From a virus (Duplodnaviria > Heunggongvirae > Uroviricota > Caudoviricetes): a stretch of DNA of 5,083 nucleotides. Positions 1 to 5,083 of this stretch are shown one piece after another (position 1 is the first letter of the stretch; the number at the start of each line of letters is the position of its first letter). The translations under genes and the position numbers were made by a program. The stretch lies in IMG/VR virus record IMGVR_UViG_3300010266_000075, positions 1 to 5,083 of that record, one strand, 5' to 3'. The notes below the pieces were generated by a model. That model saw only the letters and a list, made by a program, of their open reading frames with translations, had not been told where the DNA came from and made no database searches.

Positions 1-1
1 A

Positions 2-334
2 GAATCAACGGAAACGGCGGCAAGACAACATATCGGGCCACTGGCCCCGGTGGCAGGCTCTGATTTGTATGTGTTCAGGCCGGTGGCACATACGGTGGAT
101 TTTCATATCCGCGTGACGCCGGACACACCGGAAATACGGGCTGCCATCACCGCGGAGTTGCGTTCGTTCCTGCTGCGTGATGGTTATCCGCAGGGAGAAC
201 TGAAGGTGTCGCGTATCAGTGAAGCGATTTCCGGTGCGAACGGGGAATACAGCCATCAGTTGCTTGCACCGGCGGACAATATCTCCATTGCAAAAAATGA
301 ACTGGCGGTTCTGGGGACGATTTCATGGACGTGA
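2..334 (+). CDS. Baseplate J-like protein, C-terminal fragment (5' end lies outside the window); Mu gp47 / P2 gpJ / e14 YmfP-like
   Basis: The frame is open from position 2 with no stop until TGA at 332-334 (the ORF track starts it at an internal GTG at 50). Its stop overlaps the next gene's ATG (ATGGACGTGA), typical of phage late-operon coupling. Position immediately upstream of a gp48/YmfQ-like gene and the tail fibre matches the baseplate J to gp48 to fibre order. Family assignment is by synteny and memory, not by search. Confidence 0.55.
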
Positions 335-909
335 CAAACGATGATTACATCCGCCTGTTATCGGCACTGTTGCCGCCCGGTCCGGCGTGGTCAGCCAGCG
401 ATCCGGCGATTGCCGGTGCGGCACCGTCATTAACCCGTGTTCATCAGCGTGCGGATGCCCTGATGCGGGAGCTGGATCCGCGCACCACCACCGAACTGAT
501 AAACCGCTGGGAGCGTCTGTGCGGTCTGCCGGATGAATGTATTCCGGCGGGAACGCAGACCCTTCGCCAGCGTCAGCAACGGCTGGATGCGAAGGTTAAC
601 CTGGCGGGCGGCATCAACGAGGATTTTTATCTTGCACAGCTTGCTGCCCTGGGCAGACCAGATGCCACCATCACGCGATACGACAAAAGCACGTTCACCT
701 GCTCATCGGCCTGTACTGACGCGGTGAATGCGCCGGAATGGCGGTATTACTGGCAGGTCAACATGCCAGCCGCCACCAACACCACCTGGATGACATGTGG
801 CGATCCCTGTGATTCCGCACTGCGTATCTGGGGCGACACCGTTGTCGAGTGCGTGCTTAACAAACTCTGCCCTTCGCATACCTACGTAATTTTTAAATAT
901 CCGGAGTAA
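325..909 (+). CDS. ymfQ: Phage tail/baseplate protein, Mu gp48 / P2 gpI-like (DUF2313), YmfQ-like
   Basis: 194-aa ORF starting [22 protein letters not shown], with a GGGGA Shine-Dalgarno about 8 nt upstream and a 4-bp overlap with the upstream stop. Length (194 aa) and position between the J-like gene and the side tail fibre match YmfQ of the e14 prophage. The symbol rests on synteny and recollection, not alignment. Confidence 0.7.
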
Positions 910-912
910 TCC

Positions 913-1701
913 ATGCATCGTATAGACACGAAAACCGCGCAGAAGGATAAGTTCGGCGCGGGTAAGAACGGTTTTACCCGTGGTAACCCCCAGACCGGCA
1001 CACCTGCCACCGATCTGGATGATGACTACTTTGACATGTTGCAGGAAGAACTTTGTAGCGTGGTGGAGGCCTCCGGTGCCAGCCTGGAGAAAGGGCGGCA
1101 TGACCAGATGCTTACCGCACTTCGTGCGCTGCTGTTAAGCCGCAAGAATCCGTTTGGCGATATCAAATCGGATGGCACTGTGCAAACGGCTCTCGAAAAC
1201 CTTGGTTTGGGAGAAGGCTCTGCATTACCTGTTGGTGTCCCTGTTCCGTGGCCTTCAGCCACTCCGCCAACAGGCTGGCTGAAATGCAATGGTGCGGCTT
1301 TTTCTGCCGAAGAGTACCCAAAACTGGCAAAGGCTTACCCAAAGTTAAAATTACCGGATTTGCGCGGTGAGTTTATTCGCGGGTGGGATGATGGGCGAGG
1401 TGTTGATTCCGCGAGACTGCTACTTTCAAGTCAGGCGGCATCTATCCTTGAACATAACCATGAAATGCATGGATGGACAGGGAACCCACTCATGGCTAGA
1501 GATGTTGGTGAATTAGGTACATCATCCGTATTTGCGGTGCAGTTGAGCATTGGCGATGGCGGGTTATTGTATTCGTGGAAGGATGGGAGTGGAACAACAA
1601 ATGACAGTAAACGAATGGATAGAACAAATCATGTCAGTTCCGGCGCCGGTGATGGTAGCCCGCGAAACATTGCATTTAACTACATTGTGAGGGCTGCATA
1701 A
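913..1701 (+). CDS. stfE: Side tail-fibre protein: constant N-terminal part (about aa 1-100) fused in this orientation to a variable C-terminal part carrying a tail-collar domain
   Basis: ATG at 913 with GGAG 5 nt upstream. A tail-collar motif is visible: [25 protein letters not shown]...[19 protein letters not shown] (GWLxCNG...LPDLRGxFxRG pattern). A hix-like crossover site sits inside the gene at 1190-1215, splitting it into constant and variable parts. The symbol is tentative and refers to the e14 variable part currently fused in frame. Confidence 0.8.
1190..1215. repeat. Left crossover site of the invertible segment (pix/gix/hix-like 26-bp site inside the tail-fibre gene)
   Basis: CTCTCGAAAACC-TT-GGTTTGGGAGAA has the hix/gix architecture (12-bp imperfect half-sites around a 2-bp core; compare hixL TTCTTGAAAACC-AA-GGTTTTTGATAA, recalled from memory). 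It is an inverted copy of the site at 3100-3125, with 15 bp of exact identity (TTGGTTTGGGAGAAG at 1202-1216 equals the reverse complement of 3099-3113). Confidence 0.65.
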
Positions 1702-2304
1702 ATGGAACAGGCTATTTTGGGAAAAGACGGTTACGCTTTAAATGATGGGGAAATCATCGTACATAACTATGATGGCGAAACGCGGGAATATATTTCTACA
1801 TCAACTGAATATCTCGCTGTCGGCGTCGGTATCCCGGCATGTTCCTGTCTGGATGCACCAGGTACACATAAAGCTGGTTATGCAATCTGTCGCTCTGTAG
1901 ATTTAAATTCATGGGAATATGTGCCAGACCATCGCGGTGAAACGGTCTATAGCACCAAAACAGGAGAATCAAAAGAAATCACCGCTCCGGGTGATTATCC
2001 TGAAAATACAACCACTATCGCCCCATTAACGCCATACGATAAATGGGATGGTGAGAAATGGGTGACCGATACTGAGGCACAGCATAGCGCCGCAGTAGAC
2101 GCGGCAGAAGCACAGCGCCAGTCACTGATTGATGCTGCAATGGCTTCCATTAGTCTGATTCAACTGAAATTGCAGGCCGGACGTAAACTGACGCAGGCAG
2201 AAACAACCAGACTTAACGCTGTGCTGGATTACATTGACGCGGTGACGGCAACAGATACCAGCACCGCGCCGGATGTCATCTGGCCTGAACTGCCGGAGGC
2301 GTAG
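1702..2304 (+). CDS. tfaE: Tail-fibre assembly protein (chaperone) cognate to the expressed fibre C-terminus
   Basis: ATG at 1702 immediately follows the fibre stop (TAA-ATG). The 200-aa product ends with the conserved Tfa C-terminal signature ...LNAVLDYIDAVTATDTSTAPDVIWPELP. Length matches TfaE of e14. The symbol is tentative. Confidence 0.78.
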   Translation: MEQAILGKDGYALNDGEIIVHNYDGETREYISTSTEYLAVGVGIPACSCLDAPGTHKAGYAICRSVDLNSWEYVPDHRGETVYSTKTGESKEITAPGDYPENTTTIAPLTPYDKWDGEKWVTDTEAQHSAAVDAAEAQRQSLIDAAMASISLIQLKLQAGRKLTQAETTRLNAVLDYIDAVTATDTSTAPDVIWPELPEA

Positions 2305-2719
2305 GCCATTCAATATCTGGCGCACTGGAGGTATCAACCAGCTCCAGTGCGTCCAGATAATCCAGCCACAAATTATATTGCGCCAGTTCCTCACCTTTCA
2401 GACGACCAATAGCGGCTTTACCGGGCCATTGCTTACTGTTCATGTATTCGTTGGCCTGGTTAATTAGTAGCTGTCTTTCTGATTCAGTAATTTCAATAAG
2501 CTCTTCATGCGTGGGTGGAGGAATATCTGCCCACGCAGGCAGCCCATCATCTCCGGCAATACGGATTTTTCCTTGTGGCGGTTCAGCCATAAACTCACTG
2601 ATAATATTTTGATTTACTTCCTTAGCGTCTGATAAATCCCATCCCTCTGATTTATATTTATCAATCATATCCACAGGGAAAAAAGCATTATGCCTTGCGC
2701 TATAAACATATTCGTTCAT
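2276..2719 (-). CDS. tfaP: Alternative tail-fibre assembly protein, in the silent orientation of the invertible segment
   Basis: Minus-strand ORF ending ...LWLDYLDALELVDTSSAPDIEWPTPP, the same Tfa C-terminal signature as the plus-strand gene. I place the start at ATG 2719 (AGGGTGA RBS 6 nt upstream); the ORF track starts at GTG 2728. Its 3' end overlaps the plus-strand tfa by 29 bp. The symbol is tentative. Confidence 0.68.
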   Translation of the reverse strand: MNEYVYSARHNAFFPVDMIDKYKSEGWDLSDAKEVNQNIISEFMAEPPQGKIRIAGDDGLPAWADIPPPTHEELIEITESERQLLINQANEYMNSKQWPGKAAIGRLKGEELAQYNLWLDYLDALELVDTSSAPDIEWPTPPAVQAR

Positions 2720-2739
2720 ATAAATCACCCTGAATAAAA

Positions 2740-3112
2740 TTACTCACCAACAGCCCACCAACTGTAATTCATCGATACCGTGTCGCTGGTTGATGACGTT
2801 CTGTAAGCAGAATTAAAGCCGGTTAACGTTGGGCCTTCTGCAGTCATCACGAACCCTCGCCCAGCGCCTAAAGGCGCACCGCCATCACCAGAATGAGTAA
2901 GCATGGCGCAGTCCGCTTTTTTGGGGAAAGGGATGCTGAATGTAATTCTCATTGTTTGCGTCGATAATGTCGGCGTAACCGCACCACGACCATATTGCAG
3001 GATTTTCCCGTTGGGTAATTTCATCCATCCATCACCACTGGCAAAAGAGGCCATGTCCGGTATCTGATTTTCCCCTGTCCCCACATCCCGTTTTGCCGCT
3101 TCTCCCAAACCA
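2740..3112 (-). CDS. stfP: Alternative variable C-terminal tail-fibre segment, start-less in this orientation; would fuse to the constant part at 913 after inversion
   Basis: Minus-strand frame open from the right crossover site to a stop at 2740-2742. Next to the crossover it encodes N-V-G-L-G-E, mirroring N-L-G-L-G-E in the plus-strand fibre, and then diverges. The track's apparent start at 3153 lies outside the invertible segment and is an artefact. The symbol is tentative. Confidence 0.6.
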
Positions 3113-3125
3113 ACGTTTATGAAAA
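3100..3125. repeat. Right crossover site of the invertible segment (pix/gix/hix-like), immediately upstream of the invertase gene
   Basis: TTCTCCCAAACC-AA-CGTTTATGAAAA is the inverted partner of the site at 1190-1215. It lies 55 bp upstream of the invertase start, the usual placement of gixR/hixR-type sites. Confidence 0.65.
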
Positions 3126-3179
3126 TGCAGAAATAACGAGCAAATGGCATCATTCCTGCTTTTGTCAGGGGGATCTACC

Positions 3180-3734
3180 ATGCTTATTGGCTATGTACGC
3201 GTATCAACAAATGACCAGAACACAGATCTACAACGTAATGCGCTGAACTGTGCAGGATGCGAGCTGATTTTTGAAGACAAGATAAGCGGCACAAAGTCCG
3301 AAAGGCCGGGACTGAAAAAACTGCTCAGGACATTATCGGCAGGTGACACTCTGGTTGTCTGGAAGCTGGATCGGCTGGGGCGTAGTATGCGGCATCTTGT
3401 CGTGCTGGTGGAGGAGTTGCGCGAACGAGGCATCAACTTTCGTAGTCTGACGGATTCAATTGATACCAGCACACCAATGGGACGCTTTTTCTTTCATGTG
3501 ATGGGTGCCCTGGCTGAAATGGAGCGTGAACTGATTGTTGAACGAACAAAAGCTGGACTGGAAGCTGCTCGCGCACAGGGACGAATTGGTGGACGTCGCC
3601 CCAAACTTACACCAGAACAATGGGAGCAGGCCGGACGATTAATTGCAGCAGGAATTCCTCGCCAGAAGGTAGCGATCATCTATGATATTGGTGTATCGAC
3701 TTTGTATAAGAGGTTTCCAGCCAGGATTATATAA
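3180..3734 (+). CDS. pinE: Site-specific DNA invertase, small serine recombinase of the Pin/Gin/Hin/Cin family
   Basis: Starts MLIGYVRVSTNDQ with the catalytic Ser at position 9 in the YVRVSTxxQ motif. Also contains DTLVVWKLDRLGRS, the GRFFFHVMGALAEMERELIVERT core and a C-terminal helix-turn-helix (IPRQKVAIIYDIGVSTLYKRF). GGGGGA RBS about 7 nt upstream of ATG 3180; the upstream ATG at 3144 has no RBS and would add a non-conserved leader. Length 184 aa. Confidence 0.92.
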   Translation: MLIGYVRVSTNDQNTDLQRNALNCAGCELIFEDKISGTKSERPGLKKLLRTLSAGDTLVVWKLDRLGRSMRHLVVLVEELRERGINFRSLTDSIDTSTPMGRFFFHVMGALAEMERELIVERTKAGLEAARAQGRIGGRRPKLTPEQWEQAGRLIAAGIPRQKVAIIYDIGVSTLYKRFPARII

Positions 3735-3735
3735 A

Positions 3736-3770
3736 ACCGCAGACACGCCGTATGCAAGACGTGCTGCGGT
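3736..3770 (+). terminator. Candidate hairpin just after the invertase stop; weak, with no clear U-tract
   Basis: ACCGCAGACACG, a 12-nt loop, then CGTGCTGCGGT form an imperfect stem of about 11 bp starting 2 nt after the TAA at 3732-3734. It is not followed by a T-run, so intrinsic termination is uncertain. Confidence 0.25.
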
Positions 3771-3930
3771 TGGCTGATGCACTTTCGAGAGTGTATGTAT
3801 TGAATTATTTCCAGCCGTTACTGATTTTACGTATTTTTTGTATGAGAGGAGTTGCACCACCTCTTAAGCATAATTTGTTAGAATCATGGCAGCACAATAG
3901 CCATATATCCAATATAAAATACTTAACCTT

Positions 3931-4830
3931 CTAATCATTATGGAGTATTTGATCGCCGTATGGCCAGCCATTTTCCCCAGGAAGGGTCATACCTAACATT
4001 GGCATAATACTAAGTTGTCCAATGGTAAATCCTAGAGCACTTGTATTACTGATTCCGGCATAGGTCATATCAAGGGGGTTAGACTCTGAGCTGGACATAA
4101 AAAGATTTCTTGTGCCAATTCTATTCGCCATTGAGAACTGAATATGCCCACCAATTGTATTTACGGTGTCCTGAGATATCCAGTTGTTTAACGCGATAAA
4201 TGGCGCCCGCCACCAGTTAAGCGTGCCATTCTCAAAACGCCCCCTCGTCATCTCAATATCTTCCCGAAACTGCTGCTTTCTGTCTCCCAAGACTACCGGG
4301 GTACCTGTTGTCAGGTCAAGGCAGTCCTCAATTACAAGATTAGTGGGGTTTGATGGGGTGTTGTAGATCTTAATGATTTTATGTACCTGTGTTCTGAAAC
4401 AGAATCCGTAAATAATCATCTCCGTTGCTACAGAACGGGGAAAAAACTGGCCAATATCCAGTATAAATTTTTCCGCGATTCCCTTTGTTAAAACTGCAAT
4501 TTCATAAAGACTCGGGTAACTATCATAAGTCAACTCCGGCTGCTGAACATCATAATAATTAACTTCATGTAATGAAGATAATGATACGGCAAGTAACTCC
4601 TTCACATTTATACCGATCATTGTTCCTCCTGCAAAGCCGAAACCAAACTCCATAATTTTTTCCGGAGATAGACGGTATATGTCATTGGAGCGAATAACTG
4701 ATACCGGAATCGAGAATAGTTTAGGACAGTGATTTGTCATTACACTTTCATGCTGGGTGATTCTTGAGTCGCTTACGGCCCAGATACTTTCCCCTTCTTC
4801 CCTGTTTAGCCAGCAGGCTATTGCTGTCAT
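3931..4830 (-). CDS. Hypothetical 299-aa protein, AT-rich cargo gene convergent with the invertase; possible N-terminal-nucleophile (HslV/proteasome-beta-like) hydrolase; candidate defence or exclusion gene
   Basis: Long minus-strand ORF. I place the start at ATG 4830 (MTAIACWLN...) because a strong Shine-Dalgarno (AAAGGGGG, plus-strand 4838-4845) lies about 7 nt upstream; the track's upstream extension to 4968 has no RBS. Composition is visibly AT-rich compared with the tail genes. The N-terminus has Thr2, Asp21, Lys37 and an FAGGT motif at 66-70, reminiscent of HslV (MTTIV...GFAGGTADAF, recalled from memory). It is not McrA-like and no HNH or Walker motif was seen. Confidence 0.65.
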   Translation of the reverse strand: MTAIACWLNREEGESIWAVSDSRITQHESVMTNHCPKLFSIPVSVIRSNDIYRLSPEKIMEFGFGFAGGTMIGINVKELLAVSLSSLHEVNYYDVQQPELTYDSYPSLYEIAVLTKGIAEKFILDIGQFFPRSVATEMIIYGFCFRTQVHKIIKIYNTPSNPTNLVIEDCLDLTTGTPVVLGDRKQQFREDIEMTRGRFENGTLNWWRAPFIALNNWISQDTVNTIGGHIQFSMANRIGTRNLFMSSSESNPLDMTYAGISNTSALGFTIGQLSIMPMLGMTLPGENGWPYGDQILHND

Positions 4831-4859
4831 TGAAAACCCCCTTTTAAGTAAAAAAATCA

Positions 4860-4895
4860 GATTCAGATAGTGCATACATAATTTAGTCAAGTCAT
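4860..4895 (-). promoter_or_regulatory. Candidate sigma70-type promoter for the cargo gene (weak)
   Basis: On the minus strand, TTGACT (complement of 4885-4890) is followed about 15 nt downstream by TATCTG (complement of 4864-4869), in AT-rich context 30-60 nt upstream of the RBS. The -10 element and the spacing are suboptimal, so this is speculative. Confidence 0.2.
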
Positions 4896-5083
4896 CTCTT
4901 TTAAGACGCATTGAGAAATGGTTGCTCAAGGTGCGCCAGTGAACGCGCACGAAAATAACTTCTTGCATTTCCCATTACACTCTGACTTTAGGGCCGCGTT
5001 AGATTTTAACATGGTGGCCGTGCATCCATTTAAATTGGTAATCTGGAGAATGAGTAACGCTGAATAGATTAACAATCTATGCG

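Follow-up and report, generated by a model that had tools for sequence, protein, structure and literature searches.

A Pin-type inversion switch in the tail-fibre operon of an e14/SfV-like prophage

Organization of the tail-fibre locus and its prophage setting

The window, that is the whole analysed stretch of 5,083 nucleotides, carries two baseplate genes, a tail-fibre operon and an invertase gene, as assigned by Pfam and PHROGs. It begins with the 3' end of a baseplate J/Mu gp47-like gene (1-334, plus strand; Pfam Baseplate_J, E=1e-4), a JayE homologue truncated by the window edge, the full-length version of which (352 aa) is present elsewhere (L012-L014). The following gene (325-909, plus strand) encodes a YmfQ/Mu gp48-like baseplate wedge protein of 194 aa (Pfam Phage_Mu_Gp48, E=9e-27), which is 98.5% identical to YmfQ of E. 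coli K-12.

The tail fibre (913-1701, plus strand) is a protein of 262 aa with a Collar domain, recognized by Pfam and PHROGs. It can be divided into two parts. The constant N-terminus (aa 1-97; 913-1203, plus strand) lies outside the invertible segment and shares 97% identity with the N-terminus of K-12 StfP over aa 1-105. The variable C-terminus A (1204-1701, plus strand) is of the tail-collar type (Pfam Collar, E=6e-15, aa 108-155) and StfE-like, with 53% identity to K-12 StfE, and is presently fused to the constant part. Two tail fibre assembly genes follow, which are convergent and overlap by 29 bp at their 3' ends. The first (1702-2304, plus strand; Pfam Caudo_TAP, E=5e-33) has the same orientation as C-terminus A and encodes a TfaE-like protein of 200 aa, 91% identical to K-12 TfaE. 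The second (2276-2719, minus strand; Pfam Caudo_TAP, E=2e-31) encodes a TfaP-like protein of 147 aa with 54% identity to K-12 TfaP, and the same 444-nt gene is called by PGAP in relatives. Variable C-terminus B, a gp53-like receptor-binding domain (2740-3111, minus strand; Pfam Gp53-like_C, E=1e-12), is now positioned beside pin; its fused form is known in isolate CH458 and 73 other genomes. Just outside the segment, the ORF list places a short fixed leader with ATG ATG (3126-3153, minus strand), and then comes pin (3180-3734, plus strand), coding for a DNA invertase (small serine recombinase) of 184 aa with Pfam Resolvase and HTH_7 domains. An earlier sequence-only reading had described about 1.9 kb holding two alternative fibre C-termini and two assembly genes, a content borne out by the Collar, Gp53-like_C and two Caudo_TAP matches.

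Public E. coli contigs match the window at 100% identity from 724 to 5083, and the whole of it is found at 99.4% identity in draft contigs. No locus covering at least 80% of the whole window was found among complete E. coli genomes, because of mosaicism and because the closest complete genome, NADC1036, has the segment the other way round. In the contigs identical to 724-5083, the neighbours are an IntS-type integrase, yfdC and mlaA, and a tRNA-Arg, argW, is annotated in NADC1036. Near-identical copies are located at argW-yfdC; a close relative is part of a complete prophage of ~40 kb, and the relatives carry a full tail module as complete prophages. Beside pin, an orphan gene takes the place of mcrA. 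From the argW-yfdC setting and this replacement, the window belongs to an e14/SfV-like prophage and not to e14 itself, for which an integration at icd and mcrA as neighbour would be expected. A proteasome-beta-like fold is predicted for the downstream orphan gene. The downstream 345-aa ORF had no match in Pfam, NCBIfam, PADLOC or PHROGs, and nothing relevant on proteasome-like proteins acting against phages turned up in the literature.

Crossover sites, reading frame and invertase

The segment is bounded by two 26-bp sites in inverted orientation. The left, pix-type site (1190-1215) reads TTCTCCCAAACC AA GGTTTTCGAGAG on the minus strand, and the right site (3100-3125) reads TTCTCCCAAACC AA CGTTTATGAAAA on the plus strand. 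They are alike at 21 of 26 positions, including the common AA/TT centre, and their central dinucleotides (1202-1203 and 3112-3113) are 1910 bp apart. The dyad symmetry is imperfect, the half-sites agreeing at 8-9 of 12 positions. Both sites had been placed at exactly these coordinates from the letters alone, with 15 identical bp, and the exact inverted repeat of 15 nt was indeed recovered (1202-1216/3099-3113), along with a longer match of 19/20 (1197-1216/3099-3118). Taken alone, this 15-nt repeat is only weakly significant, because an exact inverted repeat of that length also arose in 10 of 200 mononucleotide shuffles.

The main support for the sites is external, namely their identity to those of K-12 e14, their match to gix, and a natural inversion, distinguishing the isolates CH423 and CH458, that ends at these sites. 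Both 26-mers are identical to the crossover sites of the P segment of E. coli K-12 e14, and inversion at the identical sites has been demonstrated experimentally in K-12 (PMC12529663, PMC4272514). The left 26-mer is also found unchanged in CH423, CH458, NADC1036 and SfV, and the right one at K-12 e14 and other loci. The alignment to known sites suggested in the sequence-only reading gave 17-18 of 26 matching positions with Mu gix and the same half-site structure. Two inverted 26-bp sites with the same centre, the right one 55 bp upstream of pin, correspond to the site design of the invertase family. A scan of the window for a third crossover site gave none above the shuffle range (third best score 12.3, shuffle maximum 14.6). 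The locus does not fit a multiple-inversion system, like Min of p15B or the shufflons, in which several permutations arise from more than two sites, as only two sites score above that range.

Codon 97 of the fibre gene contains the crossover dinucleotide, and G-L-G-E is encoded by both inner half-sites, so the constant part is joined in frame both ways. Inversion in silico produced an in-frame fibre of 220 aa, the same product that PGAP annotates in CH458, and the fibre sequence is identical between the two states through E101. The constant N-terminus, previously estimated at aa 1 to about 100, is thus set at aa 1-97. Preservation of the frame in both states had also been recognized, with N-L-G-L-G-E versus N-V-G-L-G-E as the junction peptide. 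The frame holds, but both states have E-N-L-G-L-G-E at the junction; N-V-G-L-G-E results only from reading the pin-proximal ORF into its outer flank. Likewise, the collar-type C-terminus and the 200-aa Tfa are now joined to the constant N-terminus, as proposed, and the word “expressed” applied to them holds in a positional sense only. Late phage genes are normally silent in a lysogen.

Pin has the layout of its family, whose members measure about 180-195 aa, with a Resolvase domain (aa 3-135, E=1.5e-51) followed by HTH_7 (aa 138-181, E=1e-14), and contains R7 and the catalytic serine S9. Its identity is 97.8% with PinE and 79% with Mu Gin, and it aligns over 182 aa with the Gin structure 3UJ3 (E=3.6e-95). 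Pin numbering is taken here to be that of Hin minus 1, based on Ser9 against Hin Ser10 and on the Hin sequence. On this numbering, K46, K47, R50, Q150, R153 and L154 of Pin correspond to Hin positions 47, 48, 51, 151, 154 and 155. Basic residues at Hin 47, 48 and 51, together with Gln151, Arg154 and Leu155, are reported to be conserved only in Fis-dependent invertases (PMC3798978). Judged by its domains, active-site serine, sites and Fis-activation residues, Pin is a predicted member of the Fis/enhancer-dependent Hin/Gin/Cin/Pin subclass.

A candidate recombinational enhancer (3213-3275) was located within the 5' end of pin by positional homology and a 48-bp spacing. It would be made of two Fis-like 15-mers, 3213-3227 (GACCAGAACACAGAT) and 3261-3275 (GAGCTGATTTTTGAA), with centres at 3220 and 3268, 48 bp apart, and with 108 bp to the centre of the right site; in the family, the two Fis sites are spaced by about 48 bp and lie about 100 bp from the nearer crossover site. 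These 15-mers fit the Fis consensus GNNYRNNWNNYRNNC only partly, one ending in T and the other in A instead of the C of the consensus; the Mu counterpart of the first does match. Scanning the 5' end of pin with GNNYRNNWNNYRNNC returned a single match (3250-3264), which was dropped as an enhancer site for having no partner at 48 bp. The first ~100 nt are nearly invariant among pin, gin, cin and the Fels-2 invertase gene, and synonymous identity is 0.51-0.67 in nt 1-120 of pin against 0.29-0.44 beyond, in a comparison of four sequences only. This raised nucleotide conservation is consistent with an embedded enhancer.

Natural inversion and comparison with known systems

CH423 and CH458 are near-identical hospital isolates. 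Their flanks are 100% identical over 5164 nt and 3303 nt, and the intervening 1921 nt are inverted. This is a natural and exact inversion, bounded by the same 26-mers as in the window, in an element 97% identical to it. Among complete E. coli genomes, the junction in the window orientation occurs in 514 and the inverted junction in 74, with up to 99.1% identity, numbers which depend on the similarity between probe and target and do not give the true orientation ratio. Closely related O157:H7 genomes include both orientations. In K-12, both coexist in clonal cultures (PMC4272514), and PinE, PinQ and PinR invert the segment (PMC12529663). Inversion is documented for relatives with the same two 26-mers, i.e., the CH isolates, the complete genomes and K-12. 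The initial proposal of an invertase-driven switch with both sites and an intact invertase is supported by the sites, the similarity of Pin, the frame and the CH423/CH458 pair. It had also been suggested that the element is inducible or recently active. The switch is intact, but inducibility of the prophage does not follow from this, because flipping of this segment is also known from the e14 remnant in K-12, which is defective (PMC4272514, PMC12529663).

The P segment and PinE of e14 (Plasterk and van de Putte 1985, as cited in PMC4272514) provide the closest parallel. The order jayE-ymfQ-stf(N)-[C-terminus, tfa, tfa, C-terminus]-pin is shared, in the K-12 layout ymfQ-stfP-tfaP-tfaE-stfE-pinE, as is the 29-bp overlap of the two tfa genes. 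In comparison, the window is oriented opposite to the MG1655 reference, and its segment measures 1910 bp, the one of K-12 being reported at 1797 bp. At E<=1e-3, BLASTP finds no similarity between the gp53-like C-terminus of the window and that of StfP. The K-12 element is a remnant at icd, whereas the relatives of the window reside at argW-yfdC with IntS.

The G segment of phage Mu with Gin follows the same logic and gene order, Sc-[Sv U / U' S'v]-gin, after the gp47 and gp48 homologues, and there too the crossover falls inside the fibre ORF. However, the Mu segment is about 3 kb long, its constant part is longer (annotated 509 nt) and its fibre C-termini are unrelated. Its gix sites have a GA centre instead of AA and are identical to each other over 26 bp, compared with 21/26 in the window.

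Essentially the same cassette is present in the P2-like Escherichia phage pro483, at about 93-95% identity over window positions 1197-3116. This homology stops at the crossover sites, and the invertase gene is 83% identical. The P2-like phages pro483 and Fels-2 differ in having a long P2 gpH-type N-terminus, a P2-type tail module and other outer half-sites. The Shigella phages SfV, SfI, SfII and SfIV are 96-97% identical to window positions 1-1216, where their homology stops; they have the identical left 26-mer, and after it a C-terminus of the gp53 type. In SfV, the only one of the four examined past the match, there is no second site, invertase or alternative cassette; the fibre is fixed and gtr serotype-conversion genes come next. 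With Hin/hix of Salmonella and Cin/cix of P1, the window shares the invertase family, the 26-bp site design, the conserved Fis-contact residues and, in the window as a candidate, an enhancer placed in the invertase gene at its 5' end. Hin differs in flipping a promoter and not coding ends, and the P1-type phage JL22 has its cin gene upstream of fibre gene S.

Function of the switch and of the ORF beside pin

Very probably, the prophage is SfV/e14-like, with a contractile tail resembling that of Mu, and its tail-fibre operon contains a Pin-type inversion switch, of the e14 P-segment type. This is carried by the sites, the genes, the frame, the identity to an experimentally proven system and the natural inversion in the 97%-identical element. 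Dimers of Pin, encoded just outside the segment, would bind the two inverted 26-bp sites and, with host Fis on the putative enhancer in the 5' end of pin, assemble an invertasome. Pin would then cut both sites at the central AA/TT, rotate one half by 180 degrees and religate, flipping about 1.9 kb, presumably also in the source strain. The constant N-terminus is always in frame with one of two receptor-binding C-termini, each with an assembly chaperone of its own behind it: the collar type with the 200-aa Tfa, as at present, or the gp53-like type with the 147-aa Tfa. By analogy with G(+) and G(-) of Mu, a lysogen population would hold both states and release, upon induction, virions of two host ranges.

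Beside pin, the C-terminus that is not in use forms part of a complete ORF of 137 aa (2740-3153, minus strand) with its own ATG outside the segment. This ORF joins a hydrophobic, fixed leader of 17 aa to whichever C-terminus sits there, now the gp53-like one. The leader is conserved (MPFACYFFIFINVGLGE in K-12 StfE, MMPFARYFCIFINVGLGE in the window), and the gp53-like domain occupies aa 45-136, close to aa 47-125 in StfE2. Although a copy placed in this way may be called silent, it is a full ORF matching the StfE/StfE2-type architecture. StfE2 was reported in 2025 to block adsorption of phage T2, which fell to 3-12% when the protein was produced from a plasmid (PMC12529663). By analogy, the ORF beside pin could be a receptor-masking protein of the StfE2 type expressed by the lysogen, although we consider this decidedly doubtful. 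If so, one flip would alter the host range of the virions released and, together with it, the set of foreign phages kept out by the lysogen. The gp53-like domain being unrelated to its K-12 counterpart, a different set of phages would be excluded.

It may even be asked whether the switch is mainly a defence toggle of the host lysogen, the ORF masking outer-membrane receptors as StfE2 of e14 is reported to do. The window state corresponds to the “inverted” K-12 form (StfP2 plus StfE2), and the separate ATG, conserved leader, domain position and effect of StfE2 on T2 all agree with such a role. However, the K-12 result came from overproduction and docking, and the activity of StfE2 is not transferable to the window ORF because its gp53-like domain is dissimilar to the StfP C-terminus in BLASTP. 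A scan for sigma-70 promoters and terminators (2700-4000) found nothing useful near this ORF or pin, and an AGGA 0-3 nt upstream of the two ATGs gives poor Shine-Dalgarno spacing. A virion role is also the simpler reading, because the tail module is full in the relatives, which are complete prophages. Defence as the main function seems unlikely, and it would be compatible with the Pin-type switch.

It is highly improbable that the switch is intact by sequence but frozen, with pin silent or inversion dependent on other invertases in trans. No promoter was detected upstream of pin, and PinQ and PinR are reported to be dominant over PinE for the K-12 segment (PMC12529663). The contigs recovered via the fused 262-aa protein all have this orientation, as a look-up by the fused protein dictates. 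On the other hand, flipping has been demonstrated with versions of Pin and of both sites identical or nearly identical to those of the window, and both orientations occur among the related O157:H7 genomes and the CH isolates. K-12 pinE mutants are locked (PMC12529663), and PinE is therefore active. Finally, that the inverted repeat is merely a coding motif (N-L-G-L-G-E) conserved where fibre domains meet, occurring twice through common descent, is virtually certain to be wrong: chance repeats in 5% of shuffles and the lone left motif of SfV, with neither partner site nor invertase, would suit it, but it is refuted by the CH423/CH458 inversion at exactly these sites, and the experimental inversion of identical K-12 sequences, the gix-type half-sites with their central dinucleotide and the nearby invertase gene also argue against it.

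The Pin-type switch is an ordinary, intact copy of the already known Pin/P-segment system, known since the 1980s, and has little weight as a discovery, the sequence of 724-5083 being already in public E. coli assemblies. Its use lies in annotation. The crossover coordinates are now fixed, and the “gp53-like domain-containing protein” and “phage tail protein” fragments beside pinE are alternative fibre ends, not pseudogenes. Assemblies of clonal isolates may differ here through programmed inversion. The cassette shared with P2-like phages is bounded exactly by the sites, an illustration of how crossover sites serve as borders between modules when tail fibres evolve.

Crossover sites, reading frame and the parked C-terminus

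Assignments by Pfam and PHROGs place along the window the 3' end of a baseplate J gene (up to 334), a Mu gp48/YmfQ protein (325-909), a 262-aa fibre protein with a tail-collar domain (913-1701) and a 200-aa Caudo_TAP assembly protein (1702-2304). These are followed by a 147-aa Caudo_TAP protein on the strand opposite to the preceding genes (2276-2719), a gp53-like C-terminal domain on the strand opposite to the fibre gene (2740-3153) and a 184-aa Resolvase and HTH_7 protein, Pin (3180-3734). The convergent assembly-protein genes share 29 bp at their 3' ends (2276-2304), a stretch read on both strands to give the two C-terminal tails, …WPELPEA and …PPAVQAR. K-12 e14 also shows this 29-bp overlap.

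Two 26-bp crossover sites are present exactly where the sequence-only reading had placed them. The left site (1190-1215), read on the minus strand, is TTCTCCCAAACC AA GGTTTTCGAGAG, and the right site (3100-3125), on the plus strand, is TTCTCCCAAACC AA CGTTTATGAAAA. They are identical at 21 of 26 positions and have the same central dinucleotide (1202-1203 and 3112-3113, 1910 bp apart), with an exact inverted repeat of 15 nt (1202-1216 and 3099-3113). The arms returned by a repeat finder around the sites match at 19/20 positions, and the internal dyad symmetry of each site is imperfect (8-9/12 between half-sites). Alignment to Mu gix, one of the comparisons suggested from the sequence, gives 17-18 matches over 26 positions. 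Taken alone, the inverted repeat has only weak statistical significance: 10 of 200 shuffles also contain an exact inverted repeat of this length. No third crossover site scored above the shuffle range with a half-site matrix, which is partly derived from the same two sites and is useful only for excluding extra ones. Its third-best match (4827-4852, TCATTGAAAACCCCCTTTTAAGTAAA), scoring 12.3 where shuffled sequence reaches up to 14.6, is probably due to chance.

The left crossover position lies in codon 97 of the fibre gene. In-silico inversion of 1202-3113, cut at the central dinucleotides, yields an in-frame 220-aa fibre made of constant residues 1-97, GLGE-AAKRD… and the gp53-like domain, in agreement with the earlier claim that inversion keeps the constant N-terminus in frame. 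The junction peptides had been read partly correctly: E-N-L-G-L-G-E spans the crossover in both states, whereas N-V-G-L-G-E is the parked ORF reading into its outer flank. This small inaccuracy does not affect the conclusion.

The parked C-terminus (2740-3153, minus strand) is an ORF of 137 aa that has a separate ATG and a leader of 17 aa, lying outside the segment, a point previously missed. K-12 StfE has a conserved counterpart of this leader (MPFACYFFIFINVGLGE in K-12, MMPFARYFCIFINVGLGE in the window), and the window's present state has its K-12 equivalent in the “inverted” form (StfP2 with StfE2). StfE2, composed of the leader plus the gp53-like domain, is reported to block T2 adsorption when produced from a plasmid (Kirigo et al., PMC12529663). 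The divergent gp53-like domain of the window might have a similar activity. A scan of the region found no promoter for the parked ORF, and its Shine-Dalgarno spacing is poor.

Family membership and evidence for flipping

The system is a Pin/P-segment system of the Hin/Gin/Cin/Pin family. The gene order of K-12 e14 (jayE, ymfQ, stfP, tfaP, tfaE, stfE, pinE) is that of the window, and the two 26-mers are likewise shared. Identity with K-12 is high for YmfQ (98.5%), Pin against PinE (97.8%), the constant fibre part (97%) and TfaE (91%). It is 53% between the collar C-terminus and StfE and 54% between the second Tfa and TfaP, and the gp53-like C-terminus has no BLASTP match to StfP. Pin shares 79% identity with Mu Gin, its alignment to the Gin structure 3UJ3 runs end to end (E=4e-95), and it contains Ser9. 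Residues K46, K47, R50, Q150, R153 and L154, reported to be conserved only in Fis/enhancer-dependent invertases (PMC3798978), are also present. Every testable family-defining feature was found apart from the enhancer, for which there is a candidate only. Tail-fibre genes form one of the recognised classes of programmed inversion (PMC9881135), and the sequence-only finding of a switch is correct, but already known.

The decisive case for flipping comes from near-identical E. coli isolates of a single hospital, CH423 and CH425 having one orientation and CH458 the opposite one. Between CH423 and CH458, flanks of 5164 nt and 3303 nt are 100% identical, and the intervening 1921 nt are inverted exactly at the two 26-mers; the element of these isolates is 97% identical to the window. 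Probes of 350 nt against complete E. coli genomes found the window junction in 514 genomes (coverage of at least 80%) and the in-silico inverted junction in 74 (identity up to 99.1%), counts that vary with probe-target similarity and do not represent a true orientation ratio. Both states also occur among O157:H7 genomes. These comparisons agree with published K-12 experiments, in which both orientations of the homologue exist side by side in MG1655-derived clonal cultures (PMC4272514) and the segment is inverted by PinE, PinQ and PinR, pinE mutants being locked (PMC12529663). For the source strain itself, we infer flipping.

The mechanism with the best support is that established for Hin and Gin. 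Dimers of the invertase would bind the two crossover sites and be activated by a Fis-bound enhancer; both sites would then be cleaved at the central 2 bp, followed by subunit rotation and religation of the ends. A candidate enhancer would be located inside the 5' end of pin, as the first ~100 nt are almost invariant among pin, gin, cin and the Fels-2 invertase gene. Among these four sequences only, the fraction of same-residue pairs with an identical codon is 0.51-0.67 over nt 1-120 versus 0.29-0.44 downstream. The Fis sites of such enhancers are spaced 48 bp apart. Two candidate Fis-like 15-mers (3213-3227 and 3261-3275), neither fitting the degenerate consensus fully, have this 48-bp spacing, and the nearer one lies 108 bp from the right site, in line with the ~100 bp given for hin (PMC3798978).

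Host prophage, module boundaries and decayed relatives

The element is an e14/SfV-like prophage. That it is e14 itself was rejected, as e14 lies at icd with mcrA and the window element in another context. Many public E. coli contigs encode the fused 262-aa protein. Upstream they carry a complete set of Mu-like tail genes (sheath, tube, tape measure, baseplate), and downstream an integrase, then yfdC and mlaA. Among complete genomes the closest is NADC1036. It has a complete lambdoid/SfV-like prophage of ~40 kb, with IntS and TorI, at the same position, and a tRNA-Arg is annotated there between the integrase and yfdC/mlaA; the segment of this prophage is flipped relative to the window and has a partly different cassette. 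Two contigs, L012 and L013, match window 724-5083 at 100% identity, and all 28 differences fall within 1-723 (9089-9811 of these contigs), at the end of jayE and in most of ymfQ. This clustering suggests a recombination tract ending inside ymfQ.

SfV, SfI, SfII and SfIV are homologous to window 1-1216 only, while in P2-like pro483 and Citrobacter phage Omnitron the homology is confined to the cassette, about 1197-3121. The regions at the homology breaks are 1197-1216 and 3099-3121 in the window, and 2480-2530 and 4385-4435 in the compared locus L017. Since the breaks coincide with the crossover sites, these act as module boundaries, and the pattern is that of the modular exchange already known for fibre cassettes.

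The intact switch had been taken to suggest an inducible element. This does not follow in itself because the defective e14 also flips, yet it is compatible with the prophage context. SfV is a decayed relative with a solitary, identical left 26-mer (L018, 3690-3715) and no invertase. In strain Bongo (L004, 5545-5995), the annotation gives pin as a partial, frameshifted gene, and in L015 (8336-8947), a prophage at a different site beside a Dus-family gene, homology ends at window position 3544, inside pin. Some relatives have thus lost the invertase, and locked derivatives of the switch exist in nature.

Cargo gene downstream of pin

An orphan gene lies next to pin (3931-4830, minus strand). In the ORF list it runs on to 4968, but the start is probably at 4830, giving 299 aa, because all homologues begin with MTAIACW. 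Its family is small (24 clusters), is found in Enterobacterales, and every member starts with M-T-A-I-x-C-W. No match was found in four profile libraries (Pfam, NCBIfam, PADLOC, PHROGs). Foldseek searches with its AlphaFold model (pLDDT 69, pTM 0.74) retrieved proteasome beta subunits and Anbu (E 1e-7 to 1e-6; target-normalised TM-scores about 0.5-0.7). The triad of the proteasome is Thr1/Asp17/Lys33, which the conserved T2, D21 and K37 of the family resemble. The orphan gene may encode an N-terminal-threonine protease that the prophage carries as cargo.

The slot just 3' of pin is a variable cargo position (3735-5083 in the window; 6791-7564, 7036-9830 and 7347-8180 in the compared loci L001, L002 and L006). 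It holds the orphan gene in the window, mcrA in K-12 e14, a LEM-3-like GIY-YIG protein in Z0117EC0148 and the CH isolates, and an HNH endonuclease and AAA ATPase, adjoining an FRG-domain protein, in MEI2B-1023. The variable region begins within the last pin codons, the Pin terminus being ARII in the window versus AGDK in K-12.
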